A stretch of 64,000 nucleotides of DNA, taken from positions 64,107 to 128,106 of the forward strand of contig JAHBVV010000018.1 in assembly GCA_019637335.1 (NCBI GenBank), written 5' to 3'. Origin of the DNA: Candidatus Hydrogenedentota bacterium. GTDB taxonomy: Bacteria; Hydrogenedentota; Hydrogenedentia; Hydrogenedentales; JAEUWI01. Made by a program: the position numbers and the translations under genes. Of the stretch, positions 1,752-50,290 are shown one piece after another; the first letter of the stretch is position 1, and each line of letters begins with the position of its first letter. The notes below the pieces were generated by a model. The model made no database searches and had not been told where the DNA came from. It saw nothing but the letters and a program-made list of their open reading frames with translations.

Positions 1752-1836
1752 CGGCGCCGTGACTGGCGACTTGGCGTGGAATCAACCACGAGGAAACGGG
1801 CCGCGTTGCATGTTGTGCCGCCGCTCGCCTGGGCCT
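1752..1836 (+). ncRNA. ZTP (pfl-motif) riboswitch candidate
   Basis: Core elements are visible: GUGACUGGCG (1759-1768), GGCGUGGAA-N3-ACCACGAGG (1773-1793) and the 3' pseudoknot partner CGCCUGGGC (1824-1832). It lies immediately 5' of a purH-family gene, the canonical ZTP regulon context. Confidence 0.55.
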
Positions 1837-1872
1837 GGAAGGGCGCGGGAAGGATGCGCCCTTCTGGTTTGA
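1837..1872 (+). terminator. Putative expression-platform hairpin / intrinsic terminator of the ZTP riboswitch
   Basis: aagggcgc-gggaaggat-gcgccctt stem-loop followed by ctggttt. The 5' arm overlaps the pseudoknot strand, so ligand-dependent competition is plausible. Confidence 0.35.
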
Positions 1873-29772: not shown

Positions 29773-29797
29773 GCCCGCGCTGGAAAGGATTTACGAG

Positions 29798-31294: not shown

Positions 31295-31295
31295 C

Positions 31296-31841: not shown

Positions 31842-33154
31842 ACCAGTTTCTCTTCGTCGGCCTGCCCTACATCGCGCTGTTCGTGCTGGTGGCCGGATCA
31901 ATCTGGCGGATCCGCCGGCATCCCTTCAGCGTCTCTTCGCTCAGCTCCCAGTTTCTCGAAGGGCGACAGTTGAAGTATGGATCGCTCCCCTTCCACCTGG
32001 GCATTCTGATTATTCTCGTCGGGCACGTCATCCCCATCCTGCTTCCGGGAATCTGGCAGGCCCTCATGGGCGTGCCCGTGCTCCTGATCAGCGTCGAAGT
32101 CATCGGCATGATCGCCGCGTTCCTGGCGTTGTTCGGGCTCGGCGTGCTCCTCTACCGGCGTCTCACCTCCGCGAAGATACAGGCGGTCACTACGCCGGCG
32201 GACCTGGCCGTGCTCGGGCTGCTCATTGCGCAGGTGCTCGTGGGCATCGGCGTAGCCGGCGGCCACCGCTGGGGCGCGGCGTGGTCCACGGGCACGACGA
32301 CGCCATACCTCTGGAGCCTGGTCGCGTTTCAGCCGCGCACGGATCTCGTGGCCAGCCTGCCGCCGACGGTCAAGCTGCACCTCGCGCTGGCGTGGGTCAT
32401 TCTGCTGCTCATTCCCTTCACGCGGCTGGTTCACCTCTTCACCTTCCCGCTCTCCTACCTCTGGCGCCCGCCCATCAAGGTCGTCTGGACGAATCCCCGC
32501 CGCTTTGCGTATGTGCCCGAGCCGGTGCGGCAGGCGGCGGACAGCCGCCGCTACTTCGTGCGCGGGGCCGCCGGTGTCGGCGCGGCGGGCGTGCTGCTCT
32601 CGGCGGGGGTGCTGGACAAGCTCGGGCGTTTCTTCCAGGGCGCGCGGATGTCGAGCGAGGCGGAGGCGGAACTGCTCGCGAAGAAGCTGGAGCGCCTCGA
32701 ACTGGCGGCGAAGGAGCGCGAACTGGAGCTCGAGCGGATCAATAGCGCGTACATTCACGTGGCGCGCCTCGGCGAGCTCAGCGAAAAGGACGGTCGGTAC
32801 TTCACCGACTACGAGATGCGGCCGGCCCTCGCCTTCCGCGATGAAAACGGCCTGCCGCTGCTCATATCGGCGAAATGCACGCACCTGGGCTGCACCGTGG
32901 CCAGCACGCTCGACGCGGACAGGCGGCTCCTCTGCCCCTGCCACGTGTCCTACTTCGACGTGCGCACCGGCCAGCCGAATCCCGGCGCGCCCGCCAAGGC
33001 CCCCCTGCCGCGCATCGGCTGGGTGCTGATGGACGCCGCCGGCGATATCGTGGCGAGCCAGGGCCCGGACGGGCCGGTTCAGGGCGCGCCCGACCCCGAA
33101 AAACTGGACAGCTACGGCGTATTCATCGCCCGGCGCATGGAGGAACTGGCCTGA
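31835..33154 (+). CDS. narI: Nitrate reductase gamma subunit (NarI) fused to a C-terminal Rieske [2Fe-2S] domain
   Basis: The N-terminal 230 aa match the NarI 5-TM diheme-b fold (FHLGILIILVGH, HRWGAAWSTG...). Then SRRYFVRGAAGVGAAGVLLSAGV, a Tat-like motif plus TM. Then CTHLGCTV...CPCHVSYFD, Rieske boxes I and II. ATG overlaps narJ by 7 nt. Confidence 0.7.
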   Translation: MLDQFLFVGLPYIALFVLVAGSIWRIRRHPFSVSSLSSQFLEGRQLKYGSLPFHLGILIILVGHVIPILLPGIWQALMGVPVLLISVEVIGMIAAFLALFGLGVLLYRRLTSAKIQAVTTPADLAVLGLLIAQVLVGIGVAGGHRWGAAWSTGTTTPYLWSLVAFQPRTDLVASLPPTVKLHLALAWVILLLIPFTRLVHLFTFPLSYLWRPPIKVVWTNPRRFAYVPEPVRQAADSRRYFVRGAAGVGAAGVLLSAGVLDKLGRFFQGARMSSEAEAELLAKKLERLELAAKERELELERINSAYIHVARLGELSEKDGRYFTDYEMRPALAFRDENGLPLLISAKCTHLGCTVASTLDADRRLLCPCHVSYFDVRTGQPNPGAPAKAPLPRIGWVLMDAAGDIVASQGPDGPVQGAPDPEKLDSYGVFIARRMEELA

Positions 33155-34260
33155 TGAGCGGTAACGAACGGGTACAGGCCCTCGGAACCTGGCTATACGA
33201 ACGCGTGCCCCTGCACAAGCTGAATTTCGAGGACATGCTGAAGAAGAAGGAGGTGCCGGTTCACCGGATGAGCTGGGCCTACTACCTGGGCGGCCTGGCG
33301 CTCCTTTTCTTCGGGATCCAGGTTGTCACGGGGCTGATGCTGCTCTTCTACTACCAGCCGACCGTCGCGGACGCCCATGCGTCGGTGGAGTTCATCACGA
33401 AGCACGTCAGCGGCGGCGCGCTCATCCGCAACCTGCACACGTGGTCGTCCTCGGGGATGATCCTGTGCGTGCTGGCGCACCTGCTCACGACCTTCGCCAT
33501 GAAGGCCTTCGAGAAGCCGCGCGAAGCGCTGTGGGTTTCCGGCGTGCTCCTGCTGATCGTGACCTTCGGGTTCGGGTTCACCGGCTATCTGCTGCCGTGG
33601 CACCAGATCGCGGTCAACGCCACGAAGGTCGGCATGCAGTCGATCGAAGAAGTGGGAGCGTACCTGCCCGGGGCGCTCTCGGAACTGCCCGCCCGGGCGA
33701 AAGAGTTGATCCAGGGCGAAAAGGCCGTGGGCCAGGCAACGCTCAGCCGCTTCTACGCGCTCCACGTGGTCGTGCTGCCGCTGGTGGCCTTCATGATCCT
33801 GGGGCTGCACCTGCTGCTGGTTCAATTGCACGGCATGAGCCAGGGGGTCGACCGGCCCACCGGGAAGACCGAGCGCTTCTTCCCGTTGTTTGTGCTCAAG
33901 GACTTCTCGCTCTGGGGCATGGTGTTTCTGGTCGTCTTCGTGTTCGCGCTGTGCCTGCCCTTCGAGGCCTTCTTCTCCTATCCCCTCTTCGAGCCCTTCG
34001 ATCCGATGGGGTCGACCCCCGACGGCATTAAGCCGGAGTGGTACTTCTTCTTCGTGTACTACCCGCTGGAGCTGCTGCCCTTCTGGCTGGTGATGATCGT
34101 GACCAACGGCGTGCTCGCGATGCTGCTGCTGGCCCCATGGATCTTCCGGGGCACACAACGCAAGACCCTCGGCTGGATCGCCGCGGCGGCGGGCGCCTAC
34201 CTCGTGATTATCACCATCTTCGGACAGTCCATATACGAGTTTCTGAAAGGAGCCCACTGA
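33154..34260 (+). CDS. Cytochrome b (bc1/b6-type)
   Basis: MSWAYYLGG...FGIQVVTGLMLLFYYQP...RNLHTWSSSGMILCVLAHL...GYLLPWHQI is the diagnostic cytochrome b N-terminal domain. ATGA overlap with the narI-Rieske stop; ggagga RBS. Confidence 0.8.
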   Translation: MSGNERVQALGTWLYERVPLHKLNFEDMLKKKEVPVHRMSWAYYLGGLALLFFGIQVVTGLMLLFYYQPTVADAHASVEFITKHVSGGALIRNLHTWSSSGMILCVLAHLLTTFAMKAFEKPREALWVSGVLLLIVTFGFGFTGYLLPWHQIAVNATKVGMQSIEEVGAYLPGALSELPARAKELIQGEKAVGQATLSRFYALHVVVLPLVAFMILGLHLLLVQLHGMSQGVDRPTGKTERFFPLFVLKDFSLWGMVFLVVFVFALCLPFEAFFSYPLFEPFDPMGSTPDGIKPEWYFFFVYYPLELLPFWLVMIVTNGVLAMLLLAPWIFRGTQRKTLGWIAAAAGAYLVIITIFGQSIYEFLKGAH

Positions 34261-34874
34261 TGCGTCAGGCAACGCCACAATGGGCGCGCGGAATCGCCGC
34301 CCTGGCCCTGGTGTGGGCCGGCCCCGCGCTCGCCTACCCCGAGTTCGAGGCCTACGTCGAAAAAGTCTCCGGCATGCCCGTGAACTGCAGCCTGTGCCAC
34401 ACCCACCCGGATGGCCCCGAGGGCCTGAAACCGGGACAGATCGGCAGCCTGAAGCCGGCGGATCTGGAACGGCACAACCGCGCGCGCGCGGCGTTTGAGC
34501 CGGGCCAGGCGGTGGACAGCCCGATTCTCAACGAATTCGGCAACTTCCTGATCGAGCAACTGGGGAAGACCCGCTTCCTCCAGATGCGGCTGGAGCCGGA
34601 AACGCTGGCCGACGCGATACCCGCGGACAGCGATCTAGATGGCGACGGGGTGACCGACCGCGCCGAGTACCTCGCCGGAACGCACCCGCTCGACCCGCAC
34701 CACGGGCCGCCGTGGCAACTCTTCTGGATCAACTTGAAGCGCAAGTTTTTCCACGTCGTCATGATCGCCGTCGCCACGGCCCTCGGCCTCTACGGGCTCA
34801 ACAACCTGCTGCGCGGGTTCGAGCTGCTCGGCGGCGCGCCAGGAGACGGGGACGATCCACAACAGCCTACCTGA
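34260..34874 (+). CDS. Membrane-anchored monoheme cytochrome c
   Basis: Signal peptide MRQATPQWARGIAALALVWAGPALA; single CSLCH; DSDLDGDGVTDRAEY calcium-binding-like loop; C-terminal TM helix. ATGA overlap with the cytochrome b stop. Confidence 0.6.
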   Translation: MRQATPQWARGIAALALVWAGPALAYPEFEAYVEKVSGMPVNCSLCHTHPDGPEGLKPGQIGSLKPADLERHNRARAAFEPGQAVDSPILNEFGNFLIEQLGKTRFLQMRLEPETLADAIPADSDLDGDGVTDRAEYLAGTHPLDPHHGPPWQLFWINLKRKFFHVVMIAVATALGLYGLNNLLRGFELLGGAPGDGDDPQQPT

Positions 34875-34907
34875 GCCCGCCGGGCCAGCGCCGATGAAAG
34901 CGCCGCA

Positions 34908-36446
34908 ATGAACGAGTCCCCCAAAGCCTATGTCGTGCTGGCGATGAACACGATCGCCTTTACCGTCTGCTTTGCGTGCTGGATGATGAACGGGGTTCTG
35001 GTCACCTTTCTGGTGGAGAACCAGGTGTTTGCGTGGAGCGAATCGCAGGTCGGGTGGCTGATCGGCATTCCGGTCCTCAGCGGATCGATCCTGCGGCTGC
35101 CGGTCGGGATCCTGACGGACAAGTATGGCGGCAAGCCGGTCTATACCGTAGTGATGCTGATCTCCGCGGTTCCGATGTATTTTCTGAGCTACGCGGATTC
35201 CTACCTGTCGTTCCTGTTGCTCAGCCTCGGCTTCGGGATCGCGGGAACCTCCTTTGCCGTCGGTATTGCGTATTCGTCGGTCTGGTTCAAGAAGGAGCAC
35301 CAGGGCACGGCGCTGGGGATCTTTGGCGCGGGCAACGCGGGGGCGGCGGTGACCAGCATGGGCGCGCCTTTTCTCCTGCGCTGGCTGACGGGCGGTGGCG
35401 AGAACGTGGAGGCGTGGCGGGCCATGCCGCGGATCTACGCCGGCGTGCTGGTCGCCATGGCGGTGCTGTTCCTGCTCTTTACGGTCCACAAGAAGGTGGA
35501 CGATTCGCATATCACCAGTTTTCGAGCGCGCCTCGCCCCGCTGCGCTACATGCGCGTCTGGCGCTTCGGCCTGTACTACTTTCTCGTCTTCGGCGGCTTC
35601 GTGGCGATGGCGCAATGGCTCATCCCGTACTACGTGAACGCCTACATGATGCCGCTCGCGACGGCGGGTCTGATGGCGGCGATCTTCAGCCTGCCATCCG
35701 GGGTTATCCGCGCGCTCGGCGGGTACATGTCCGACCGGTGGGGCGCCCGGCGTGTGATGTACTGGGTGCTCGCCTCCTGTCTCATCTGCTGCTCGCTGCT
35801 GGTCGCGCCGCGCATGGAGCTGGAATCGCCGGGGAAGGGGATCATGGCGAAGCGCGCCGGCGTGGTGACGTCGGTCTCCGAGGAGGCGATTGTCGTGGGC
35901 GAAACGCGGTACCCGCTCCGCACGGCGGAAGGGAAATCGCTTACGGACGCGCAGAAGCATGACGGGGTGCTCGTGTGGCCCACGTTTGCGATGTGGCAGG
36001 AGCCCGTGGTGGCGCCGGGCGACGACGTTGTGAAGAAGGAGCTCCTCGCGCGCGGGGTCACGCGGGTGTACTTCCAGGCGAACGTATGGATCTTCACGGG
36101 GCTGGTTTTCATTGTCGGGATCATGATGGGGATCGGGAAGGCGGCGGTCTACAAGCACATCCCCGACTACTTCCCGCGCGAGGTGGGGGTGGTGGGCGGC
36201 ATCGTCGGCGTGCTCGGGGGTCTGGGCGGGTTCATCTGCCCGATTATTTTTGGATACCTGCTCGAACGCACGGGGATTTGGACCACCTGCTGGCTCTTTT
36301 TTGCCGTGCTGTCCGGGATTTGTCTGTGGTGGATGCACCGGGTCGTCCAGCGGATGCTGCACGAGGCGGCGCCGGAGCTGATCGGCCACATTGAAGACTT
36401 GGAACACGCACGGGAACAGCAGCGCTACGGGCGCGGCGCAACCTGA
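34908..36446 (+). CDS. narK: MFS nitrate/nitrite transporter (NarK family) with an about 100-aa insert after the TM6-TM7 region
   Basis: The G-x3-D-x2-G-x-R-like motifs and overall 12-TM MFS pattern resemble NarK. A central soluble insert (residues about 300-400) is atypical. Confidence 0.75.
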   Translation: MNESPKAYVVLAMNTIAFTVCFACWMMNGVLVTFLVENQVFAWSESQVGWLIGIPVLSGSILRLPVGILTDKYGGKPVYTVVMLISAVPMYFLSYADSYLSFLLLSLGFGIAGTSFAVGIAYSSVWFKKEHQGTALGIFGAGNAGAAVTSMGAPFLLRWLTGGGENVEAWRAMPRIYAGVLVAMAVLFLLFTVHKKVDDSHITSFRARLAPLRYMRVWRFGLYYFLVFGGFVAMAQWLIPYYVNAYMMPLATAGLMAAIFSLPSGVIRALGGYMSDRWGARRVMYWVLASCLICCSLLVAPRMELESPGKGIMAKRAGVVTSVSEEAIVVGETRYPLRTAEGKSLTDAQKHDGVLVWPTFAMWQEPVVAPGDDVVKKELLARGVTRVYFQANVWIFTGLVFIVGIMMGIGKAAVYKHIPDYFPREVGVVGGIVGVLGGLGGFICPIIFGYLLERTGIWTTCWLFFAVLSGICLWWMHRVVQRMLHEAAPELIGHIEDLEHAREQQRYGRGAT

Positions 36447-36456
36447 GGAACGCACC

Positions 36457-38070
36457 ATGGCGGCCTTGAGACAATGGGAGCCGGAAGACGAGGCCTTCTG
36501 GAAAAATGGCGGCAGCGCGATCGCGCAACGCAACCTCTGGATATCGATCCCGAACCTGCTCCTGGGCTTCGCGGTCTGGATCCAGTGGAGCGTGATCATC
36601 GGGCTCATGCAGGGGGCGCACGACACGAATCCGGACCTGTACAACTTCACCTTTGGCAATGATGGACAGCCGCTTTCCGGCGAGGCCTACAAGGCCCTGC
36701 TCTACACCTTGCCGGCGGTCGCGGGGCTTGCGGGCGCAACGCTGCGCATTCCCAATTCCTTCATGATCGCGATATGCGGCGGTCGCAACGTCAAGGCGCT
36801 GACCACGCTGCTGCTTATCCTGCCGGCGCTCGGCGCGGGCCTGGCGCTGCGAAATCCCGATACCCCGTTTCTCATGTACATCCTCCTCGCCGCGCTCTCC
36901 GGCGTGGGCGGCGGCGCCTTCGCGTCGTCCATGTCCAACATCAGCTTTTTCTTTCCACGGCGCATGCAGGGCCTCTCGCTGGGGCTGAATGCGGGCCTGG
37001 GCAATCTCGGCGTGGCCGTCATGCAGCTTTCCGTGCCCCTGGTGATTACGATCGGTATCTTCGGCGGCCCTTCGCAGGCGCTCGACGGCAATCCCGTCTG
37101 GATTCAGAACACCGGGCTGGTCTGGGTTCCGGTGCTGGCCTTTTTTGCCGTGGTCGCGTGGTTTGGCATGCACAACCTGCCGCAACACGACTGCGGATCG
37201 GCACTGTCCGCCGCCGGGCGCTTCCTGTGGCTCGAACTGCTCGGTTTTGTCGGGGCCGCGGTGGCTATCGTGCTCCTGCTGCTCCCCTGGGGGGGCGTGC
37301 CGGAGCTGCTGAAGATTCTGGTGGTGTTGATCGTCGCCGTGCTGGTGACGCTGGCCTGCATGCGCTACCTAACGCCCGCGCAGACCCAGGCGCGCCTCGT
37401 CAGCCAGTTCGGCATCTTCAAGAACAAGCACAACTGGATCATGACCTACCTCTATGTCATGACCTTCGGATCCTTCATCGGCTACTCGAACGCGTTTCCG
37501 AAGTTGCTCAAGGATGTCTTCGGTTACATCCGCGTGGATGAGGCCGGCCAGCCGCTGGCGGAAGCCATCGTCAATCCGAACGCGCCGAACATCCTGAAGT
37601 ACGCGTTCCTGGGCGCCGCCATGGGCGCGGCGATTCGACCGATTGGCGGCTGGCTGTCCGACAAGTTCGGCGGCGCGCGCGTGACGCACTGGGACACGAT
37701 CGTTATGATCGCGAGCGCCGTGGCCTGCGGGTATGTCGTGAGCCAGGCGAACGTCTCGCCGCAACCCGAGAAGTACTTTGCGGCGTTCCTGGCGATATTC
37801 ATCCTGCTCTTCGCCACCACCGGGATCGGCAACGGATCGACCTTCCGGATGATCGCGGTAATCTTCTCGCGGGAACAGGCCGGCCCCGTGCTGGGGTGGA
37901 CCTCCGCCATCGCGGCGTACGGCGCGTTCCTGATTCCCAATGTGTTCGCGAGCCAGATCAAGGCCGGCACGCCGCAGTACGCCATGTACGGCTTCGCGAT
38001 CTACTACGTGACCTGCCTTGCGCTGAACTGGTGGTACTACGCACGCAAGGGGGCCGAGGTGAAGTGCTGA
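36457..38070 (+). CDS. narK: MFS nitrate/nitrite transporter, NarK2-like
   Basis: 12-TM MFS; conserved NarK motifs GGAFASSMSNISFFFP...G; tandem with the upstream narK. Confidence 0.75.
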   Translation: MAALRQWEPEDEAFWKNGGSAIAQRNLWISIPNLLLGFAVWIQWSVIIGLMQGAHDTNPDLYNFTFGNDGQPLSGEAYKALLYTLPAVAGLAGATLRIPNSFMIAICGGRNVKALTTLLLILPALGAGLALRNPDTPFLMYILLAALSGVGGGAFASSMSNISFFFPRRMQGLSLGLNAGLGNLGVAVMQLSVPLVITIGIFGGPSQALDGNPVWIQNTGLVWVPVLAFFAVVAWFGMHNLPQHDCGSALSAAGRFLWLELLGFVGAAVAIVLLLLPWGGVPELLKILVVLIVAVLVTLACMRYLTPAQTQARLVSQFGIFKNKHNWIMTYLYVMTFGSFIGYSNAFPKLLKDVFGYIRVDEAGQPLAEAIVNPNAPNILKYAFLGAAMGAAIRPIGGWLSDKFGGARVTHWDTIVMIASAVACGYVVSQANVSPQPEKYFAAFLAIFILLFATTGIGNGSTFRMIAVIFSREQAGPVLGWTSAIAAYGAFLIPNVFASQIKAGTPQYAMYGFAIYYVTCLALNWWYYARKGAEVKC

Positions 38071-40668: not shown

Positions 40669-41277
40669 TTACTCCTGCTTCGCCTTCATCGGGTTCGGGT
40701 GCTCGATGATTTTCACCGCCTGCTCGTAGTCGAAGCCGGCCTTGGAGCCGTCTTCCTTCGTGTATTTTTCAGGATCCCAGGTGGGGCTTTCTTCATTGTG
40801 GCACTGGAGGCAGAGGGACTCCTCGACTTTCAGGAGGTTCGCCATCCAGTCGACCTCCTCCGAAGTTTTCTTCTTGAACATGACGTCCTTGCCTTCGGCG
40901 ACGTGGAATTCGCCGGGGCCGTGGCAGGTTTCGCACTGGACGCCCATTTCGGGCTTAATCTTTGCCGGCGCGGCCATGGCCTGGAAGTCGTAGGCCGTGA
41001 CGTGGCACTTGAGGCACTCGGGGGCTTCGTGCGGGGGCTTGGTCATGCCGCGCTCCTGCGCGACCTTCAGCGCCGCCTCGCTCTTGAGGTTTTCGAAGGC
41101 CTTGGAGTGTTTCTCCGCCTTCCAGGCGGTGAACTGGGCGCCTTCGGGCTTCTTGTCGTGGCAGACCTTGCACTGATCCGCGCCAATGTACTCGGGTTTC
41201 TTGTCCTGGGCGTGCGCGACGCCCGCAGCCAGCATCAGAGCGACCGCGCCGATGAGACCTTTACGGAAGAATTGCAT
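40669..41277 (-). CDS. Periplasmic tetraheme cytochrome c
   Basis: aaggagg RBS; signal peptide; four CxxCH (CKVCH, CLKCH, CETCH, CLQCH); 202 aa. Confidence 0.75.
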   Translation of the reverse strand: MQFFRKGLIGAVALMLAAGVAHAQDKKPEYIGADQCKVCHDKKPEGAQFTAWKAEKHSKAFENLKSEAALKVAQERGMTKPPHEAPECLKCHVTAYDFQAMAAPAKIKPEMGVQCETCHGPGEFHVAEGKDVMFKKKTSEEVDWMANLLKVEESLCLQCHNEESPTWDPEKYTKEDGSKAGFDYEQAVKIIEHPNPMKAKQE

Positions 41278-41415
41278 GGTACCTCCTTCAATTTCTGATT
41301 TTTGTCCTGGCAATGCGTGGCTGCCCGCGCAATACCTCCAAGTATAGCGCACATTCACCGCGCGCGAAACTTTTTTGTGCGCGAACCCCGCGAACTGGAC
41401 GCGGGACGGCGCGAA

Positions 41416-42549
41416 CTATTCATGGCACACCCGGCAGGCGACCGAATTGTTGGTCGGGTGCGGGGCGCGGTGCGGCAGCCCGCCCGGGTGGCACTCGGCG
41501 CAATTCGTCGGGAAGATGCCCAGGGTGTGCGGCGACCGGGTCGACGTCCGGTGCTCGATGTTTTCATGGCAGACGGTGCAGGAGGTTTCCTGCGCGGGGA
41601 AGTGGCAGGAGACGCAGTGCTGGTTGCGCGAGCCGCCGAATCCGGCGCGATGGGAGCGCGGCGCGGTCTTCTCGTGGCATTTGATGCAGGAGTCTTCCTC
41701 GTGGCAGACGGCGCAGCTCTCGCGGTTGATGAGGGCCTGGAGGCCATGGGGTTTGCGGCGCCAGGCGATGGTGTGGTTTTGCGGCTTCTCTCGGCTGTGG
41801 CAATCGTCGCAGGTGGCCACCGTATCGTGGCACATGGCGCAATACTGTGGGTCGAACTGGGCCTCTTTACCGTGTATTTTCAGCCAGAGGTCCGGCGAGT
41901 CGTGCGCGATGCGCGCGCCGCTGCGGAACTTGGGGCGGGTTTCCTCGGTGATCTCGGAGTGGCAAATCGCGCATTCGTTGGCGACAAAGGCGATATTGGG
42001 CTCGCCCGACTCCAGCATGGGCGCGTCGCTGGTCTTGTGGCAATCCATGCACCAGGGCATGAGCGGGCCCTTCGGGAGATCGGGGATTTCGCCGGGGGTC
42101 TTGTGGCACTCCATGCAGGAGATTTCCGCGTCCATGTGCTCGGCGTGTCCGAAGATGGTCTCCACGCTCATGCGCTTGACCAGGGGATCGACCGACTGGT
42201 CGTCGCGGGTGTGGCAGAAGCTGCACGCGGCCCGGTCGGCGGCCGGGACGTTTTCCTGGGCTTCGACCGCCATCACGACGTCGAGATCGATCTCGTGGCA
42301 GATACTGCACAGGTCGTGACCGGGCATCACGTGCGCGGCGTCTTCCCAGATGTGGCAGGTGGTGCAGTCGAGCTGCTGTTCGATATGCGCGTTGTGGCCG
42401 GACTTGAGGCCGCGGCTGTGCGGTTCCGGCGCCGCGGCGCGCCCGAAGAGGGCGCCGCCGAAGATGAACGCGGCGCAGTAGAGCGCCACCCCGGCTGCCA
42501 GGGTCCAGCGGAAGCCCCGCCCGCGGATTATTTCCATTCCATTCTTCAT
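41416..42549 (-). CDS. Multiheme cytochrome c with about 14 CxxCH motifs; N-terminal signal/anchor
   Basis: 14 CxxCH motifs counted in 377 aa, about one heme per 27 aa. Start codon overlaps the stop of the upstream beta-barrel gene (TAATG). Confidence 0.8.
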   Translation of the reverse strand: MKNGMEIIRGRGFRWTLAAGVALYCAAFIFGGALFGRAAAPEPHSRGLKSGHNAHIEQQLDCTTCHIWEDAAHVMPGHDLCSICHEIDLDVVMAVEAQENVPAADRAACSFCHTRDDQSVDPLVKRMSVETIFGHAEHMDAEISCMECHKTPGEIPDLPKGPLMPWCMDCHKTSDAPMLESGEPNIAFVANECAICHSEITEETRPKFRSGARIAHDSPDLWLKIHGKEAQFDPQYCAMCHDTVATCDDCHSREKPQNHTIAWRRKPHGLQALINRESCAVCHEEDSCIKCHEKTAPRSHRAGFGGSRNQHCVSCHFPAQETSCTVCHENIEHRTSTRSPHTLGIFPTNCAECHPGGLPHRAPHPTNNSVACRVCHE

Positions 42550-44222
42550 TAGAATCGTATCCGGTAGCCGGCCCGGAGCCGCCAGTATGGCGAATCGGGC
42601 GCATCATCTTCCTCGAAGGATACCTTGGCGAATAGCTCCTGGTCCTTCCGGAACTCCCATTCGATATCGGTAAAAATGCTGTAAACGTTCTCGCGCGTAT
42701 CCACCACCCGGGTCGCCGCGTATTGCGCGAAGAATGACCTGCCGGGATAGACGCCGGGAAGCAGGGCGACGATCGCGTCGTTCAGTCGCGCGGTGCGGTA
42801 GTCATACTCGATGACGCGATCCTTGTAGCGCACGAAATCGACCCCCGCGCGCCACTTCACGGTTTCCCACTTCCGCTCGACCTCGCCGGTCACGGTCCAG
42901 TAGCCCTCGCCCTCCGAGGTGTCCCAGTATTCGAGGGAGGTGGAGACATCGAATTCGCGGTACAGGTCTTCGACGTACAGGACGGTGGCGAGGCGGTAGT
43001 AGTCGCGGCTGCCGGTGTAGAAGTCGTCGTTTTTCGCGTCGCGGATTTCGCCTTCCAGGGAGAGGGTGACCCGCTTGGTGATTGGGCGGTGCAGGCCGAT
43101 GTAGAGGGTCTTGTGTTGCCGGTACTGGCCCAGGATTTGGTAGAAGGGCGAGAGATCCGCCGTGGTGTCGCCGGTCGTGTCGAAAAGCTGGCGGTAATCC
43201 ACGTCGTAGAGGAGATCCAGCCGCGGTATGTAGCCGTTGAGGCTGAGCACGAGTTCGTTCACGTCGCCTCCGAGCGTGCCCAGGCGCGCGAAGAGGCGGG
43301 TGTTTACGCCGAAGCTGTGCCAGAGGCTCAGGGTCACGCGGCTGTCATTGATTTCATTGGCGATGGGCCGGTTGAAGCCGCCCAGCAGGGAACTCCGGCG
43401 CGCGCGGGCGACGCCATAGCGGCTTTCCTCGGCATAGTAGCCGTCCAGCGCGAGGCGCGTGTGGACGCCCGGTATAAAGGCGACGCCGCCGCCGAGCACG
43501 AGATCGTCCGAGGTGTCGCGGTATATGGAGGCGCGGGCGCCGATGAAGCCGTACCACTCGAGCCGGTCGTGGCGCTTCTTGAGGTACAGCCCGTCCACCC
43601 GGTTGTAGGTCGCGCCCTCGCGGATGCGGTGCCGCCCCAGGCGCAGCACGGATTGATCGCCCAACACGCCGTCGATGTCGGCGTACAGGTAGAGCAGCCG
43701 CGCCTGCACATCGGAGGCGGACGCGTCGTTGATGTCGCGCAGGGTATTGGGTTTTCCGCGGTCCGAGGAGAGGTCCTGGTGCAGCCAGAGCGATCCGCGC
43801 AGGTGCAGCCGGGGCATTTGGGGCGGGTCCATCTCCAGGCGCAGATACTCGCTCAGGTCCCAGTCGTTTCCGCCGCCGGAGATAACACTGTCGATTTCCG
43901 CCTCAAAGGAGCCGCGATACCAGGGCGCGGTGGCGGCCCGCGTTTCCGGCGCTTCCCCCGCGTCGGGCGGGGTTTCACCCGAGTCCTCTTCCGCGGGCGC
44001 TTCGTCGCCCTCGCTCTCGGGAGCCGCATCCTCCGGCGGCGCTTCGGCCGCCGCCTCCGGACTGGCGGCCTCCTCGACGACCGTATCCGGCGCGGCTTCG
44101 GCGTCCTGGGCGCGGGCGGCCGGGTGGAAGCAGGCGGCGATCAGCAGGATCAACAAGGCGATCCCCCCGCCGCAACGTTTCGCTTCGTGCCTTCGAGAAA
44201 GCAACGCCCGTAACCTTTCCAT
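42549..44222 (-). CDS. Putative outer-membrane beta-barrel (porin-like) protein encoded between multiheme cytochrome genes
   Basis: Signal peptide (…LLILLIAACFHPAARA-QD). Acidic A/E/P-rich N-terminal linker. Long stretch of alternating hydrophobic/polar residues rich in Y/R/D. C-terminal …YRIRF matches the OMP beta-signal (terminal Phe, hydrophobics at -3/-5). Start assigned at MERLR; the six-frame ORF extends further upstream without a signal peptide. Confidence 0.5.
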   Translation of the reverse strand: MERLRALLSRRHEAKRCGGGIALLILLIAACFHPAARAQDAEAAPDTVVEEAASPEAAAEAPPEDAAPESEGDEAPAEEDSGETPPDAGEAPETRAATAPWYRGSFEAEIDSVISGGGNDWDLSEYLRLEMDPPQMPRLHLRGSLWLHQDLSSDRGKPNTLRDINDASASDVQARLLYLYADIDGVLGDQSVLRLGRHRIREGATYNRVDGLYLKKRHDRLEWYGFIGARASIYRDTSDDLVLGGGVAFIPGVHTRLALDGYYAEESRYGVARARRSSLLGGFNRPIANEINDSRVTLSLWHSFGVNTRLFARLGTLGGDVNELVLSLNGYIPRLDLLYDVDYRQLFDTTGDTTADLSPFYQILGQYRQHKTLYIGLHRPITKRVTLSLEGEIRDAKNDDFYTGSRDYYRLATVLYVEDLYREFDVSTSLEYWDTSEGEGYWTVTGEVERKWETVKWRAGVDFVRYKDRVIEYDYRTARLNDAIVALLPGVYPGRSFFAQYAATRVVDTRENVYSIFTDIEWEFRKDQELFAKVSFEEDDAPDSPYWRLRAGYRIRF

Positions 44223-44248
44223 GTGCCGGTGTGCCGGCGTTTGCGCGA

Positions 44249-45316
44249 TCAGGGCCGCGCCCCGAGCATTTCGTAAAGGGATTGCAGGTATTCGTTGTTG
44301 GCCCGATCCGCGGGATTGTGCGCGGTCCCGGAACCCGGCGCGCTGGAATCGTGGCAACCGGTCACGCCGGCGCACGAATTGGGCGGCGCGGGCGTGACGC
44401 CTTGCGCCACGGCGTCGTTCGTGGCGATGGGCGGAATGGTAAACAGCGAGTGGTCGTGCCCCGCCGCGCCGCCGGCGTCCAGCGGCGGGAGGTGACAGCT
44501 CGTGCAGCGGCTTGCGCCCGACCCCGCCGGATCGACCGGATGGAAGGGGCCGGTGTGAAAATCGACGTCCGCGTCGGTCCGGAAGCCGAGCTGCGCACTC
44601 TGGTGGCACTGCAGACAGAGGCGGTTGTCCGCCGGATTGGCGCGGAACATGTCGCCCTGGTGCATGTTGTGGCAGCTTGCGCAGGTGGCCACGTCCAGCT
44701 GCGCGTGGGTGCTCGCGGCGAAGCCCGCCACGGCGCCCTCGTGGCACTCGCCACAGAGCATGGCGTAGTTTTCGCTGCCGAACCGGGCGGGCGAAGTGGC
44801 GCTGATCGCCATGCCTCCCTGCTTGTGCACGTTGTGGCAATCGGTGCAGGTTGCGGCGCCCGCGTTGAAGTGCGCGGTCCGCAGGAAGCCGCTCACCGAA
44901 TCACCGCCCGGCGTCGTGGTGTCCGCGTGGCATTCGGTACACGCCGCGTGCCGCTTTTCGAATGGCAGGCGCCCGGGATTATCGATGAAGAGGCCGAAAC
45001 GCCCGCCGTTGCGGACATGCCGCAGGCCGGGGCCGTGGCAGGTTTCGCAGGAGATGGACTTGTGGGGCCCCTGGAAGTGCTCGCGCTGGTCGCTTGCGCT
45101 GCGGCCGTCGTGGCAGGCCATACAGGTGGCCGTGCCGACCTCGCCGGGCCCCAGTGCGGTCCCGCGGCATCCGTCCACGCCCAGCCCGAGCAATGCGGCC
45201 GCCGCCAGGCCGAATCCTCCCAGCGCCGCGCGCGCGCGCCGCATGCGGCGGCGTGGCGAGGCCGCCGCGATTACACCGCGCACCCCCTCCCCCATTCCCA
45301 AATTACGGTCCACCAT
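44249..45316 (-). CDS. Octaheme c-type cytochrome (periplasmic; start uncertain)
   Basis: Eight CxxCH (CMACH, CETCH, CTECH, CTDCH, CGECH, CASCH, CLQCH, CTSCH) plus one CX5CH-like site. Hydrophobic N-region RRARAALGGFGLAAAALLGLG. Alternative starts at 45295 or 45244. Confidence 0.65.
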   Translation of the reverse strand: MVDRNLGMGEGVRGVIAAASPRRRMRRARAALGGFGLAAAALLGLGVDGCRGTALGPGEVGTATCMACHDGRSASDQREHFQGPHKSISCETCHGPGLRHVRNGGRFGLFIDNPGRLPFEKRHAACTECHADTTTPGGDSVSGFLRTAHFNAGAATCTDCHNVHKQGGMAISATSPARFGSENYAMLCGECHEGAVAGFAASTHAQLDVATCASCHNMHQGDMFRANPADNRLCLQCHQSAQLGFRTDADVDFHTGPFHPVDPAGSGASRCTSCHLPPLDAGGAAGHDHSLFTIPPIATNDAVAQGVTPAPPNSCAGVTGCHDSSAPGSGTAHNPADRANNEYLQSLYEMLGARP

Positions 45317-45401
45317 GTTCCCTCGCCGATCCAACCCGTTTCTCCGCCCGCCCAGCAGCCGCCGGAGACTACGCTGGCGTATCCCGGTCTTGCGGCATTG
45401 G

Positions 45402-45604
45402 CTGTCTGGCGCCAGACAGTAAGCAATCTTGTTGCCAACTCCCGAACGGAGTGGCGCTTGGTTCCCAATGGCGTTCACGCTAGCACGAACGCGCGAGCAA
45501 GTCAAACAAAACTACCTTGCGAAACGAACCGATCTGGTGTAAGGTGGAGCAGTAACCGGCGCACTACTGTGCAATTGAGCAGGCGCCGGGTGTTCAATTG
45601 AACA
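45402..45604. promoter_or_regulatory. Divergent promoter region of the cytochrome cluster with two perfect palindromes
   Basis: ctgtctggcgccagacag (45402-45419; 18 nt) and tgttcaattgaaca (45591-45604; 14 nt). Both lie in the about 600-bp intergenic gap between the minus-strand octaheme operon and the plus-strand decaheme gene. Confidence 0.3.
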
Positions 45605-45930
45605 CATCGAGATCACTTCTGAGCGACGGGGGGAATCCGGACCCGATAGTGAGTGACGGAAATGGCCGAAAATGCGCGGGTAGACGGGCAAATCGAGGGC
45701 CGGGGAAGCAGACGGTAATCTTGGCATGGAAACGGCTTGCATTGCAGGTTAGATAGCCAGCATCAGGGCAGCAAATGGCCATGGCGGCTGTCGAATTGGA
45801 AGTGTGTCGCATCGGATCCGCATGGGGTCGGCTTCGGTCGTGGCGACCACGGCGCCGGAGAGCGAGTTGGGAATCCGCCCGTAGAGGGCGTTCAGGAACG
45901 CACGGGGAACCGTGAAGGGAGAATCAGGTT

Positions 45931-48003
45931 ATGGCCAGCCAGCGTGAAGTGAGGAAAGCCACCGGGTGGGCGTTCGTGTCGTTGTTAGCGACCGCCGTTC
46001 TGTTGGTGGGCTGCCCCGTGACTCCAAATCCGGATCCGGACCCGGATCCCGACCCGGAACCCCAGGTGGTGGTTCCGGTTTCCACTTCACCGGGCCTGAA
46101 CGTGGAAATCGAGAAAGTGGAGATCCCGGCGGACCTGAAGCCGGTGATCCATCTTACGATCACGGACAACGCGGGCCAGCTGATCCCGTTGCGCGAACTC
46201 ACGGACGCGCGCTTCATTCTGGCTTACCTGAATCCGTCGCCTCCCGAGGGGAGCACGGCCCACTACATCAGCTATAACACCCGAACGGAAGCCGCGGCGG
46301 GCGGCGGCACGGTGCTGCAGGCGACGTACGACGGGGCCGGGCTGGGCGGCCTGACCCAGAAAGCGGACGGGACCCTGAGTTATAAGTTTGGAACGGCCCT
46401 GCCCGCGGACTATATCGAAAGCGCCACCCACCAGATCGGCGGGCAGCTCTCGCGGCGTTTTCCCATCGACGAGGTCGTTTATCCCGCGAACGCGGACTTC
46501 AAGTTCCGCCCGGACGGCGGCATGGAACTGGGCGCCCGCGAGATTGTGAACACGGAGACGTGCAACGTCTGCCACACGCGGTTGGCGGTTCACGGTACGC
46601 GCCGCGAAGTACAGCTTTGCATCCTCTGCCACAACCCGGGATCGACGGACGGGAACACGGGCAATTCGGTCGATTTTGCGGAGATGATACATAAGATCCA
46701 CCGGGGCGCGGGCCTGCCCAGCGTGCAGGATGGCGAGCCCTACCAGATCATCGGTTTCCGCAACACGGTGCACGACTATTCCGAGGTGCATTTTCCGCAG
46801 CCGGTACAGAACTGCACGGCGTGCCACGCCAACACCGACATGGCGAACATCTACATGACCACGCCCACCATCGCGGGTTGCGCCTCCTGCCACGACCGGA
46901 CCTGGTTCGGCGATCCGCTGCAAACGCCGGCGGGCTGGGAAAACCACCTGGCCGGCCAGCAGGTTGACAATCGCCTGTGCGCGCTGTGCCACACGCCGAC
47001 CGCGCCCGGGCCGTCTCCGATCATGGAAGCGCACCGGCTGCTGACCGATCACCCGAACGCGCCGGGTCTCGCGCTGACCGTCAACCGCGTGACGACGGCC
47101 GAGACCGAGACGGGCATCGCCGTGACAATCAACTTCACCGCGGAGGACGAAAGCGGCGCGCCGTACACGCAGCTTTCCGCGCTCTCCACGGTCGCGGCGA
47201 CGGTCGCCTACCCGGCCGCCGAATACGAGACTTCATTCCGCGAGACGATCAACGCGGGCAATTCCGTCGCTAATGGGGATGGAACCTTTAACTACACATT
47301 TAACCGCCAGCTACCCGCGGGGCTTACCGACACCGTCGCCGTGGCGATGGACGGCCGGTTGAACTTCGCCATTGGCGACCTGAACGTGACCCAGGGCACC
47401 TCGTCCAACGGCCGGATGATCTTCACGGCCAACAACAGCCAGCCCGTCGAGCGGCGCCAGATCGTGGACGACGCGAAGTGCAATGCCTGCCACGGGGAGG
47501 TCCGGCTGCACGGAAGTCTGCGCGTCGGCGTCGAGTACTGTGTGATGTGCCACAACCCGAGTTCCTCGGACATCAACCGGCGGCCGGAAGGCGCCGGCGA
47601 TCCGGAGACGATCAACTTCAAGGACATGATCCACAAGATCCACCGCGGCGCCGAGCTGGAAAGCGGCTACACGGTCTATGGCTTCGGCAGCACCGCGTTC
47701 GATTTCACCGGCGTGCACTTCCCTGGCGACCTGCGCGCCTGCGAAATGTGCCACGTCGAAGGCTCCTACAGCGTTCCGCTGGCTATGGAGACCCTTTCAA
47801 CCATTGTGACGGATGCGGCCGGCGCGCTTCTGAGGGAGAAGCTTCCCGAGCGGGCGGCCTGCGTATCCTGCCACGACAGCCTGATTACCGAGGTGCACGC
47901 GATCCTGCAGACCGACCCGAACACACGGGTGGAGTCTTGTTCGGTGTGCCACGGCAACAACGCGGATTTCTCGGTGCTCGACGTCCACAACATGGGCCCG
48001 TGA
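45931..48003 (+). CDS. Decaheme c-type cytochrome lipoprotein (MtrC/OmcA-like outer-surface cytochrome candidate)
   Basis: Lipobox LLVGC followed by PNPDPDPDPDPEP linker. Ten CxxCH motifs arranged as two homologous pentaheme halves, each ending in the motif (F/N)xxMIHKIHRGA. Confidence 0.8.
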   Translation: MASQREVRKATGWAFVSLLATAVLLVGCPVTPNPDPDPDPDPEPQVVVPVSTSPGLNVEIEKVEIPADLKPVIHLTITDNAGQLIPLRELTDARFILAYLNPSPPEGSTAHYISYNTRTEAAAGGGTVLQATYDGAGLGGLTQKADGTLSYKFGTALPADYIESATHQIGGQLSRRFPIDEVVYPANADFKFRPDGGMELGAREIVNTETCNVCHTRLAVHGTRREVQLCILCHNPGSTDGNTGNSVDFAEMIHKIHRGAGLPSVQDGEPYQIIGFRNTVHDYSEVHFPQPVQNCTACHANTDMANIYMTTPTIAGCASCHDRTWFGDPLQTPAGWENHLAGQQVDNRLCALCHTPTAPGPSPIMEAHRLLTDHPNAPGLALTVNRVTTAETETGIAVTINFTAEDESGAPYTQLSALSTVAATVAYPAAEYETSFRETINAGNSVANGDGTFNYTFNRQLPAGLTDTVAVAMDGRLNFAIGDLNVTQGTSSNGRMIFTANNSQPVERRQIVDDAKCNACHGEVRLHGSLRVGVEYCVMCHNPSSSDINRRPEGAGDPETINFKDMIHKIHRGAELESGYTVYGFGSTAFDFTGVHFPGDLRACEMCHVEGSYSVPLAMETLSTIVTDAAGALLREKLPERAACVSCHDSLITEVHAILQTDPNTRVESCSVCHGNNADFSVLDVHNMGP

Positions 48004-48082
48004 TCGCGGGATTCGCCAGTATAATCAGTAGTACGGGTCGCGGGGAAGGTGGTAGTACCGAGCCGCCTTCCCCGCGGCATCC

Positions 48083-49558
48083 ATGATGGTTCGGGCCGTA
48101 GCGCGGGAGAATGGATTCATGACAAGGACACCCAGGGGATGGAAGTGGGCTATCGGCCAACTTGTCTGGCGTAACTGGCTGACGTTGTTCGGCAGCAGCC
48201 TGACCACGGTGAGCGCACTGGCGATTATCGTGTTCATGGTGCTTGGGGGGGCGGGCGTCGCCCTTTCGCCCTATATCGGCCTGCTCACGTACCTGGTGCT
48301 CCCGGGAATCTTCGTTTTCGGCCTGCTGCTCATTCCGCTGGGCGCCTGGGTTGACCGGCGGCGGCGCCGCCGCCTCAACGAAGATGAGCCCGCCCATATC
48401 GATCTGGATTTCAACAACCCGCGCATCCGGCGGCTGGCGATGATCGTCACCGTGCTTACGGCGGCCAACATCGCCATCATATCGGCGGTGAGCTACGAGG
48501 GCGCGGTGTACATGGAATCGGTGGCTTTCTGCGGCACGACATGCCACACCGTGATGGAGCCCGAGTTTACGGCCCACATGAACTCGCCGCACGCGCATAT
48601 CAGCTGTGTGGAGTGCCACATCGGCCCGGGGCTGTCCGCGATGGTCCACGCGAAGCTCAACGGGCTCAACCAGGTGTACGGCGTGCTGACGGGCTCGTAT
48701 GAACGCCCAGTGCCGACGCCGGTGCACGGCATGGCGAACGCGGAGCTTACCTGCGGCGAGTGCCACAACCCGGGCATGGATCTGGGGAACACCTTGCGGG
48801 TAACGACGGATTACGCCACCGACGATGCGAATACGCCCCTGACGTCCGTTCTGCTGATGCGCGTGGGCGGGCGGGGCGTCGAGGGCACGGGCATCCACAA
48901 CTGGCACCTCGCTCCCGGCCGGGAGGTCTACTTCTATTCGCCGGACGACAAACGGGAAGTGATCACCTATGTGAAGGTGGCCAATGAAGACGGCACGGAA
49001 GTGGAATACTTCGTTGACGGGGCCGAGGTTGACCCCGCCTCCCTGCCACCCGGCGCCTTGCGGAAGATGGACTGCACCGATTGCCACAACCGGGCGAGCC
49101 ACGTCTTCGAAATGCCGGGTCCCGCGTTGAACAAGGCCATTGCGCGTGGCGAGATCGATGTTGCGCTGCCGTCCGTGAAGGCGGCGGGCCTGGAGGCGCT
49201 GGAGGGCGCGGTCGCGGCGGAGGATGGCCCGGCCTTCATTGCGAAGTCGGTACAGGACTATTACGCGGCGAACTACGCGGACGCCGCGGCGCAACAGCAA
49301 GCGCTGATCGATCGGGCGATCGCGAGCATGCAGGGCATATACAAGCGCAACATCTTCCCGAAAATGAATATCGGGTGGGGGACGTATCCCGACCACAATG
49401 GCCACACCATGTTCAATGGGTGCTTTCGCTGCCACGACGACGGTCACAGCAGCCGCGACGGCGCGCACGTCATCAGCCAGGACTGCACCGCGTGCCACAA
49501 CGTTGTTACGTGGCAGGAGGAGAACCCCGAAATACTTTCGACCCTGGGGCTTCAGTAA
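48083..49558 (+). CDS. Membrane-anchored hexaheme cytochrome c (quinol dehydrogenase candidate)
   Basis: Two N-terminal TM helices. Six heme sites: CGTTCH (a CX3CH variant), CVECH, CGECH, CTDCH, CFRCH, CTACH. An alternative start at 48119 (MTRTPRGWKW) has a better RBS. Confidence 0.7.
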   Translation: MMVRAVARENGFMTRTPRGWKWAIGQLVWRNWLTLFGSSLTTVSALAIIVFMVLGGAGVALSPYIGLLTYLVLPGIFVFGLLLIPLGAWVDRRRRRRLNEDEPAHIDLDFNNPRIRRLAMIVTVLTAANIAIISAVSYEGAVYMESVAFCGTTCHTVMEPEFTAHMNSPHAHISCVECHIGPGLSAMVHAKLNGLNQVYGVLTGSYERPVPTPVHGMANAELTCGECHNPGMDLGNTLRVTTDYATDDANTPLTSVLLMRVGGRGVEGTGIHNWHLAPGREVYFYSPDDKREVITYVKVANEDGTEVEYFVDGAEVDPASLPPGALRKMDCTDCHNRASHVFEMPGPALNKAIARGEIDVALPSVKAAGLEALEGAVAAEDGPAFIAKSVQDYYAANYADAAAQQQALIDRAIASMQGIYKRNIFPKMNIGWGTYPDHNGHTMFNGCFRCHDDGHSSRDGAHVISQDCTACHNVVTWQEENPEILSTLGLQ

Positions 49559-49654
49559 GGTACGGCTTGCCGCGGCGTCGCCCGGGATGGCGCCGCGGGG
49601 CACAGCAGGTGTCCCGGCGCGCCCGCGCGAAACGGCGGGTGAAAAGGGGATGGT

Positions 49655-50290
49655 ATGACGCGTTCGGTTCAATGCACGGTGTGGGCGGGGCTGCTGGTCG
49701 CCGCGGGTTGCGTGACGCCCGAGGTTCGCTACGAGACGATTCACGAGGCGGCCGCCGAAGGGAACACGCACGATGTTGCGGCGATGGTCGATGGCGGCCA
49801 ATCGATCAACGCGCGGGGCGAGCACGGCATGACGCCGCTGCATAGCGCTGCCGCCTGGGGCAATGAGAACATCATGGCGTACCTTATCCGCAACGGCGCG
49901 GAGGTGAACGCGACGAACGACTGGGGGCTCACGGCCCTGCATATTGCCGCCGCCCGGTGCCACGATCACGATGTGTTGTTTCTTCTCGAGCACGGGGCCG
50001 ATCCCAACGCCCCGACCAACGCGAGCTGGACGCCGCTCCATTATGCGGCGGCCCGCGGCAACGTGCAGGTTACCCGCACCTTGCTCGACGCCGGGGCGAA
50101 CCCGGACCTCCAGAACCAGACCGGCGACACGCCGCTGCACCGCGCCGCGCGCAACGCCAGCGAAGACGTGGTGCGGCTGCTTCTGGAGCGTGGCGCGGAC
50201 CCGGCCCTGAAGAACGCCGACGGCGACACCCCCGCCGCCGCCGCGACCCGCGAGGGCCACGCGAACATCGCGGCGATCTTCGGGCGGTAG
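49655..50290 (+). CDS. Ankyrin-repeat lipoprotein
   Basis: Lipobox LVAAGC; five ankyrin repeats (G.TPLH.AA..G motifs). Confidence 0.75.
   Translation: MTRSVQCTVWAGLLVAAGCVTPEVRYETIHEAAAEGNTHDVAAMVDGGQSINARGEHGMTPLHSAAAWGNENIMAYLIRNGAEVNATNDWGLTALHIAAARCHDHDVLFLLEHGADPNAPTNASWTPLHYAAARGNVQVTRTLLDAGANPDLQNQTGDTPLHRAARNASEDVVRLLLERGADPALKNADGDTPAAAATREGHANIAAIFGR

Follow-up and report, generated by a model that had tools for sequence, protein, structure and literature searches.

What kind of protein does a gene with ten heme-attachment sites encode in the genome of a Candidatus Hydrogenedentota bacterium, and between which partners would it carry electrons? The window analysed here is a 64,000-nucleotide stretch of contig JAHBVV010000018.1 (NCBI GenBank assembly GCA_019637335.1, positions 64,107 to 128,106 of the forward strand), and all positions below refer to it. 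The gene in question is:

45931–48003, + strand: gene for a decaheme c-type cytochrome lipoprotein of the OmcA/MtrC family, 690 amino acids (aa) (open reading frame (ORF) list; TIGR03507; PF22113; exact NCBI match)

A preliminary description, made from the sequence, had recognised a lipoprotein with two blocks of five hemes, each block containing a copy of the motif MIHKIHRGA, and had considered that the sequence itself looks unrelated to MtrC and OmcA. By profile scores and predicted fold, the protein is instead an uncharacterised member of the OmcA/MtrC family of outer-membrane multiheme cytochromes. We further infer that this lipid-anchored decaheme protein would act as the extracellular end of an electron conduit, and we assign a probability of about 0.82 to the reading as a whole, from family, fold and heme ligands to function.

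The ORF product has the same sequence as GenBank entry MBX3179232.1, which is named "OmcA/MtrC family decaheme c-type cytochrome" [Candidatus Hydrogenedentes]. It scores 410.8 bits against the NCBIfam profile TIGR03507, which bears the same name and has a curated cut-off of 209.3 bits, and aa 70–686 span profile positions 7–672 of 672. PF22113, which describes domains II/IV of MtrC/MtrF, matches two stretches of the protein with 190.1 bits (cut-off 30), the best of them at aa 509–687. In the PDB, phmmer retrieves MtrF (3PMQ, E=5.6e-33), OmcA (4LMH, 4.4e-24), UndA (3UCP, 1.8e-9) and MtrC (~2e-6). These scores contradict the earlier impression of an unrelated sequence. An AlphaFold2 (AF2) model, built on 86 homologues and containing no hemes, has a mean predicted local distance difference test score (pLDDT) of 92 and a predicted template modelling score (pTM) of 0.84. 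Its secondary structure elements follow each other as strands, helices, strands and helices, the order expected for a barrel–pentaheme–barrel–pentaheme protein. The 15 best Foldseek matches in the PDB are all structures of OmcA, UndA, MtrC or MtrF (E 4e-31 to 2e-22, template modelling (TM) score 0.60–0.70, full length), the full-length matches including 4LMH, 3UCP, 6QYC, 4LM8 and 3PMQ, and the first match beyond this group drops to E=1e-4 and TM 0.11. The comparison of a predicted structure with MtrC and OmcA, proposed in the preliminary description, thus yields a four-domain match to OmcA, MtrC, MtrF and UndA. From the homology and the fold match, the ten hemes are probably arranged in a staggered cross.

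The ten CxxCH sites are located at aa 211, 230, 295, 317 and 350 and at aa 517, 537, 604, 644 and 670. Twenty of the 21 cysteines of the protein lie inside these sites and the remaining one is the lipobox Cys28. Among 20,000 shuffled versions of the protein the mean number of CxxCH was 0.023 and the maximum 2, and the 5+5 arrangement in a lipoprotein stands as first described. All ten sites are present in 116 of 117 homologues. The parallel spacing claimed for the two blocks holds for the first three sites and is looser afterwards (19/65/22/33 in block 1 versus 20/67/40/26 in block 2). A Shine–Dalgarno-like AAGGGAG is found approximately 10 nucleotides (nt) 5' of the ATG, and the N-terminus of the product consists of two elements:

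45931–46014, + strand: lipoprotein signal peptide ending in the lipobox L-V-G-C (Cys28) (read from the sequence)
46015–46065, + strand: Pro/Asp-rich flexible tether PVTPNPDPDPDPDPEPQ (low AF2 confidence; variable linkers in homologues)

The cysteine of the lipobox column is kept in 96 of the 117 homologues, mostly as L[AV]GCP. The spacer that had been noticed directly after it is indeed present, and its low AF2 confidence marks it as flexible: residues 30–32 score below 50, and the blocks 21–30, 31–40 and 41–50 average 60, 53 and 79, respectively. Linkers following the lipobox Cys in the homologues are variable and Pro-, Asp- or Glu-rich (e.g., PDPDPD, GEGEGE, PPVVxPP). We also considered a Ser/Thr-Pro-Ser/Thr "hematite-binding" motif, for which the TPT after the heme-5 site (CALCHTPT) was a candidate; since TPT is not kept in the alignment consensus, this reading was dropped.

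The two blocks of hemes had been attributed to a tandem duplication of a pentaheme module, with self-alignment of the protein as the proposed check. A significant internal repeat is found: the N-terminal and C-terminal halves match each other by BLASTP (E=9e-31, 32% identity over 214 aa) and, in a profile–profile comparison based on the 86-sequence alignment, with E=6.8e-59 over 274 columns (aa 53–370 versus 377–688). The duplication is therefore upheld, but the repeat unit is not the pentaheme part alone. The four-domain fold is an ancient tandem duplication of a unit composed of a β-barrel and a pentaheme domain:

46087–46530, + strand: domain I, β-barrel, ~aa 53–200 (AF2 strands E57–192; aligns to domain III; Foldseek)
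46531–47058, + strand: domain II, pentaheme, hemes 1–5, with additional His 221, 254, 257, 339 and 368 (PF22113)
47059–47445, + strand: domain III, β-barrel, ~aa 377–505, without a CX8-15C disulfide (AF2 strands E381–499)
47446–48000, + strand: domain IV, pentaheme, hemes 6–10, with additional His 527, 568, 571, 656 and 686 (PF22113 aa 509–687)

What, then, is the role of the repeated motif? It was said to occur in identical form near nt 46690 and 47630, and it does, although between heme sites 2 and 3 and not, as had been stated, at the end of each block:

46684–46710, + strand: first copy of MIHKIHRGA, aa 252–260 (gap-free alignment to OmcA MIH(274)AIH(277)KGG)
47626–47652, + strand: second copy of MIHKIHRGA, aa 566–574 (aligned to the first copy and to MtrF LIHGLH and UndA MIHQIH)

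In the 117-sequence alignment, the invariant histidines outside CxxCH number five per pentaheme domain, namely, 221, 254, 257, 339 and 368 in the first and 527, 568, 571, 656 and 686 in the second, and their positions are equivalent between the halves. Ten hemes need ten distal ligands, and five invariant histidines per domain are reached only when those of the motif are counted; together, these ten residues would complete the bis-histidine ligation of the ten hemes. Individual ligands can be compared with OmcA, in which distal-ligand mutants are H277M, H240M, H274M, H384M and H359M for hemes 1–5 and H618M, H576M, H613M and H733M for hemes 6–9 (PMC9861303). Translation of the OmcA mutagenesis primers in the same paper gives FTYMIHAIMKGG for heme 1 and FTYMIMAIHKGG for heme 3. 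phmmer aligns MIH254KIH257RGA of our query without gaps to MIH269AIH272KGG in the numbering of the OmcA chain, and the +5 offset of this numbering has two independent confirmations (H235 of LALHGG equals H240, and H571 equals H576). Query residues H221, H254, H257 and H527 align in this way to OmcA H240, H274, H277 and H576, the ligands of hemes 2, 3, 1 and 7, respectively. We predict H254 to be the distal ligand of heme 3 and H257 that of heme 1 and, via the duplication, H568 and H571 to be the ligands of hemes 8 and 6. H568 and H571 come in the same order as the OmcA heme-8 and heme-6 ligands H613 and H618. The domain-IV copy in OmcA has diverged to H-x4-H (AWKAH613ESEGH618), whereas both copies here are H-x2-H.

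The alignment of H254 and H257 to the heme-3 and heme-1 ligands of OmcA supports the suggestion, already made in the preliminary description, that the motif supplies distal heme ligands. The other possibility raised there, that MIHKIHRGA is a flavin- or metal-binding site and not a heme-ligand pair, is very improbable. It draws on the His content of the motif and nothing more. Against it, H274 and H277 of OmcA, with which the motif histidines align, were assigned as heme ligands by experiment, and the motif histidines are required to reach ten distal ligands. Moreover, the region linked to flavin binding in Shewanella is that of the domain-III disulfide, close to heme 7 (PMC4486940), and this disulfide is absent here. 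The heme-1 and heme-3 ligands of OmcA lie close together and mutation of either of them destabilises the protein (PMC9861303), which explains the strong conservation of the motif; since every MIHKIH accounts for two of the five distal ligands in its domain, the motif is both so conserved and present twice.

When sought in other multiheme proteins, as had been proposed, the motif is found throughout the family, in MtrF (MIHSKH, LIHGLH), UndA (MVHAIHKG, MIHQIH) and OmcA (MIHAIHKGG, nearly identical to MIHKIHRGA). Two copies of the pattern [ML][IV]H[KR]IHxG are present in almost every one of the 85 related genomic loci that were read for motif and Cys counts, and the two copies are identical to each other in L017, L035, L050 and L052, among others. 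In the window, the two 27-nt copies differ at 4 positions, all synonymous, and their flanks are only ~60% identical. Recent gene conversion between the copies was considered and rejected in view of the 4 synonymous differences and of the (near-)identical pairs that are common across the clade; since the differences are exclusively synonymous, the identity of the peptides is ascribed to purifying selection. A further conserved histidine outside CxxCH, His167 (46429–46431, + strand), is located in the last strands of domain I (ATHQxGGQ) and is found in 116 of 117 sequences. It has no counterpart in domain III, and the Shewanella proteins have Q or R at the aligned position.

How close is the protein to the characterised members of the family? 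With MtrF (3PMQ) and MtrC (4LM8; 6QYC from S. baltica) it shares the organisation of a decaheme lipoprotein, the barrel–pentaheme–barrel–pentaheme layout, the order of CxxCH sites, the H-x2-H distal-ligand motif in both pentaheme domains and a flexible Gly/Asp/Pro linker after the lipobox Cys. Foldseek matches to these structures have E ~1e-23 to 1e-26 and TM 0.6–0.7. The differences are that identity amounts to only 18–20% in the structural alignment and that the decaheme gene here has no adjoining mtrA/mtrB. The best structural match is OmcA (4LMH; Foldseek E=4.4e-31, TM 0.66–0.67), which is accessory to MtrCAB (PMC4486940) and, unlike the protein described here, contains disulfides in its domains I and III. 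The domain-III disulfide, CX8-15C, is present in all clades of Shewanella outer-membrane cytochromes (Edwards et al. 2015, PMC4486940), where it acts as a redox switch for the binding of flavin mononucleotide (FMN) and its loss is harmful in air (PMC4486940). No such CX8-15C pair occurs in domain III of our protein, which has no spare Cys beyond the lipobox and heme motifs. This state is widespread: no Cys other than those of the heme sites is found after aa 60 in 101 of the 117 homologues, nor in the mature part at 58 of the 85 genomic loci. A CX5C pair was observed in domain III of an acidobacterial subset (L039, L061, L071, L075, L077, L079 and L065, from Bryobacterales and other Acidobacteriota), and it may correspond to the CX8-15C disulfide of Shewanella.

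Relatives of the decaheme protein are encoded in at least 572 loci among species-representative genomes, mainly of Hydrogenedentota and Acidobacteriota. Identity to the query is 46–68% in Hydrogenedentota and 34–40% in Acidobacteriota (Bryobacterales, Thermoanaerobaculia, Holophagae, Blastocatellia), with scattered others. The acidobacterial MtrC homologues of Bryobacterales, Thermoanaerobaculia and Holophagae likewise have ten hemes, two copies of [ML][IV]H[KR]IHxG and mostly no extra Cys, and they represent Group 5 MtrCAB of Baker et al. 2022 (PMC8805035). In Acidobacteriota the gene is followed by that of an MtrA-like cytochrome (278–313 aa) and then by that of a 634–708-aa barrel, which is the canonical mtrCAB order, and the acidobacterial barrel in L078 gives a weak match to PF11854 (MtrB_PioB). 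By contrast, the Hydrogenedentota clade has a divergent octaheme/22-strand-barrel/14-heme/c554 operon in place of this order. Several loci from metagenome-assembled genomes (MAGs) labelled "uncultured Nitrospirales/Nitrospiraceae" (L012, L014, L015, L016, L018 and L021) contain decaheme genes 45–50% identical to the query, and the Hydrogenedentota-type module described below is likewise present in L015 and L021. This suggests either mislabelled bins or lateral transfer.

The genes that accompany the decaheme gene in the window are, in the order of the divergent operon and then downstream:

44249–45316, − strand: octaheme cytochrome with a lipobox-like Cys, divergent operon gene 1 (8 CxxCH; partly MtrA/DmsE-like)
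42549–44222, − strand: outer-membrane β-barrel of ~22 strands, 557 aa, divergent operon gene 2 (AF2)
41416–42549, − strand: 14-heme cytochrome, 377 aa, divergent operon gene 3 (14 CxxCH; Pfam c7/c3)
40669–41277, − strand: periplasmic c554-like tetraheme cytochrome, divergent operon gene 4 (PF13435 E=5.6e-18; 4 CxxCH; classical signal peptide)
48083–49558, + strand: membrane-anchored multiheme cytochrome of the NapC/NirT/NrfH type, downstream gene (5 CxxCH and one CX3CH; PF03264, TIGR03153 partial)

Six genes, for the c554-like tetraheme, 14-heme, ~22-strand barrel, octaheme, decaheme and NrfH-like proteins, form a module that is kept around the decaheme gene in the Hydrogenedentota loci L001–L009, L013, L015, L020 and L021. 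The decaheme proteins of these loci are 48–68% identical to the query (98% in L001) and the flanks of the module differ; in L002 the NrfH-like gene is located at the opposite end. No sigma-70-like promoter was seen in the scanned stretch 45200–49800, in which terminator-like matches were limited to one, below shuffle expectation, and no Rfam family was found in the long divergent intergenic region or across the gene pair.

The octaheme cytochrome is only partly MtrA-like: TIGR03508 (MtrA/DmsE) gives 72.9 bits against a cut-off of 192.2, and the GSU2203 family gives 82.1 bits, also below cut-off. The start of its ORF is uncertain, a Met at 45244 yielding a cleaner signal peptide. Its best match in the PDB is chain 6r2q_A (E=9.7e-8), which belongs to the Mtr complex of S. 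baltica (PMC7198977). The 333-aa chain 6r2q_A carries the label "Cystathionine beta-synthase" in the PDB table, which looks like a metadata error. The barrel, 100% identical to the NCBI hypothetical protein KF886_17890 from the same MAG as the decaheme protein, has no match in Pfam, NCBIfam or PDB sequences (the latter searched with both the single sequence and a profile). Its AF2 model contains 22 strands, with most of the strand-rich 10-residue blocks averaging above 90, and the protein has a disordered, acidic N-terminus and Phe as its last residue. The model is shorter in strands than MtrB, which has 26 (PMC7198977). A divergent MtrB was considered but is not supported, there being no match to PF11854 or TIGR03509, no PDB sequence match, and only generic large barrels (FimD, AlgE, Occ porins; TM 0.33–0.40) among the Foldseek matches. 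In hhalign comparisons of the barrel profile with two acidobacterial MtrB-like barrels the probability was below 1%. A profile search of 1.8 billion representatives retrieved 482 relatives of the barrel; ten sampled ones have no informative Pfam family, but one relative, P0230, is joined to a multiheme cytochrome by fusion or merging, and another is joined to ResB in the same way.

The octaheme and 14-heme cytochromes have a lipobox-like Cys in most orthologues (L002, L004, L009, L013, L015, L020, L021 and L026), and the 14-heme protein of the window has an atypical ALYC at the lipobox position. The module would thus encode three lipoprotein cytochromes, namely, the octaheme, 14-heme and decaheme proteins; in Mtr systems MtrC is the sole lipidated component. 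The downstream NrfH-like cytochrome has its best PDB match in the quinol dehydrogenase NrfH (2j7a_C, E=4.8e-5) and is a candidate quinol dehydrogenase. Its first heme site (48530–48547, + strand, aa 150–155) reads CGTTCH followed by TVM, i.e., CX3CH-x2-M and not CxxCH. CG..CH[TS]VM is kept in the NrfH-like orthologues of the related loci, and the CX3CH looks like a conserved non-canonical heme-attachment site.

How would such a set of proteins work? In the reading we prefer, the decaheme protein would sit on the outside of the outer membrane, held there by its N-terminal lipid and the flexible Pro/Asp linker. The quinol pool would deliver electrons to the NrfH/NapC-like cytochrome (48083–49558), which would hand them on to periplasmic cytochromes. 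From these they would reach an octaheme or 14-heme cytochrome threaded in the ~22-strand barrel (operon 40669–45316) and after it the decaheme protein, whose own acceptor would be insoluble or extracellular, for instance Fe(III) or Mn(IV) oxides. In the Mtr complex, heme 5 of MtrC receives electrons from heme 10 of MtrA across MtrB (PMC7198977), and by analogy the decaheme protein may be fed by a barrel-sheathed cytochrome in the same manner. Its location at the cell surface and the reduction of an extracellular acceptor are likewise proposed after the characterised Shewanella relatives. The reading agrees with the count of 15 Hydrogenedentota MAGs as putative Fe/Mn reducers via FeGenie porin–cytochrome homologues (PMC10809760). 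Some points weigh against it. Surface exposure is taken over from Shewanella, and a lipobox alone is silent on the face of the membrane. The partner barrel has no detectable similarity to MtrB/PioB in Pfam, NCBIfam or hhalign comparisons with the acidobacterial barrels, and the docking of the decaheme protein on it is therefore suggested by gene linkage. Finally, the Hydrogenedentota paralogues L010, L016 and L018 sit without the module.

Alternatively, the decaheme protein might face the periplasm, from the inner leaflet of the outer membrane or from the inner membrane, where it would store electrons or relay them between the NrfH-like dehydrogenase and the barrel complex. Shewanella depends on a type II secretion system to display its proteins of this kind at the surface, and no such system was seen in the window. 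As the octaheme, 14-heme and decaheme proteins all have a lipobox-like Cys in most orthologues, it cannot be assumed that all three are external. However, all structurally characterised relatives are extracellular (PMC4486940, PMC7198977), a long flexible tether behind the lipid anchor is kept among the homologues, and the closest acidobacterial relatives are encoded in the order mtrC–mtrA–barrel. We regard the periplasmic location as quite unlikely.

The direction of electron flow is a separate matter. MtoAB/PioAB-type systems are thought to run inward and multiheme conduits of the Mtr/Mto family are reversible in principle. The conduit might accordingly work in reverse, with Fe(II), Mn(II), reduced minerals or humics as electron donors at the cell surface and, for example, the respiratory nitrate reductase encoded 8–20 kb upstream as the recipient. 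The window does encode narG, narH, a narI–Rieske fusion, cytochrome b and two NarK-like transporters at 26155–38070, and in hadal sediments the Hydrogenedentota with porin–cytochrome genes reach their maximum in the nitrogenous zone (PMC10809760). Yet the nar genes lie outside the conserved module, the flanks being different in L002, L004 and other loci, and the characterised proteins of the OmcA/MtrC family are known as reductases. The oxidising conduits MtoAB and PioAB are not known to have an MtrC-type partner, which also counts against electron uptake. It is an unlikely alternative, if a somewhat better one than the periplasmic relay, and outward transfer by a surface-exposed decaheme protein is preferred.

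If the decaheme protein does terminate a conduit, of which type is it? Porin–cytochrome (Pcc) clusters of the Geobacter type combine a periplasmic octaheme cytochrome (OmaB/C), a porin-like protein (OmbB/C) and an outer lipoprotein multiheme cytochrome (OmcB/C). The divergent operon of the Hydrogenedentota module resembles them in its logic, since it joins an octaheme cytochrome to a porin-like barrel and to a lipoprotein cytochrome rich in hemes; Geobacter Pcc clusters are not known to have an OmcA/MtrC-family partner. The phylum may thus possess an outer-membrane conduit of its own, a hybrid with Mtr-like and Pcc-like traits, in which a disulfide-less decaheme protein is combined with an unannotated ~22-strand barrel, lipoprotein octaheme and 14-heme cytochromes that thread or flank the barrel, and an NrfH-like quinol dehydrogenase with CX3CH. 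We put this forward tentatively, at slightly less than even odds.

Other features of the window include the remainder of the nitrate reductase cluster at 26155–38070 (+ strand), with a NarG-like protein of 1205 aa, a NarH-like protein and two NarK-like transporters of the major facilitator superfamily (MFS). In this cluster the NarI–Rieske fusion (31712–33154) is followed by cytochrome b (32875–34260), both on the + strand, an unusual arrangement. An ORF of 2972 aa at 8473–17391 (− strand) consists almost entirely of TPR repeats and matches many TPR Pfam families (best E=1.8e-54). A ZMP/ZTP riboswitch (RF01750; 44.1 bits, gathering score 39) is located at 1749–1841 (+ strand), just 5' of an ORF at 1895–3013 (+ strand).

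Ten hemes, an internal duplication and a repeated His motif are textbook features of OmcA/MtrC proteins, and the GenBank name of the protein is already correct. What is moderately novel is the surrounding barrel–cytochrome module, which is not of the Mtr type, and the missing disulfide. Within the literature collection searched, no paper linked Hydrogenedentes/Hydrogenedentota with a decaheme cytochrome, MtrC or OmcA, and there were only survey-level mentions. Baker et al. 2022 required clustered mtrC, mtrA and mtrB and reported three phyla (PMC8805035). The locus described here departs from such an MtrCAB cluster, since the octaheme protein has 8 hemes and not 10 and the barrel matches neither PF11854 nor TIGR03509; with mtrCAB clustering as a requirement, the Hydrogenedentota arrangement is missed by design. 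It is now documented that the OmcA/MtrC family is common outside Proteobacteria. In Hydrogenedentota, its decaheme member is found with a different, unannotated barrel–cytochrome operon and without the disulfide which, in Shewanella, has been proposed as the gate for flavin binding and for reactivity with oxygen. If the hybrid conduit is real, an uncultured, widespread phylum would truly respire metals or minerals, or else live by electron uptake, and the module provides a concrete gene set with which to ask whether Hydrogenedentota respire minerals.

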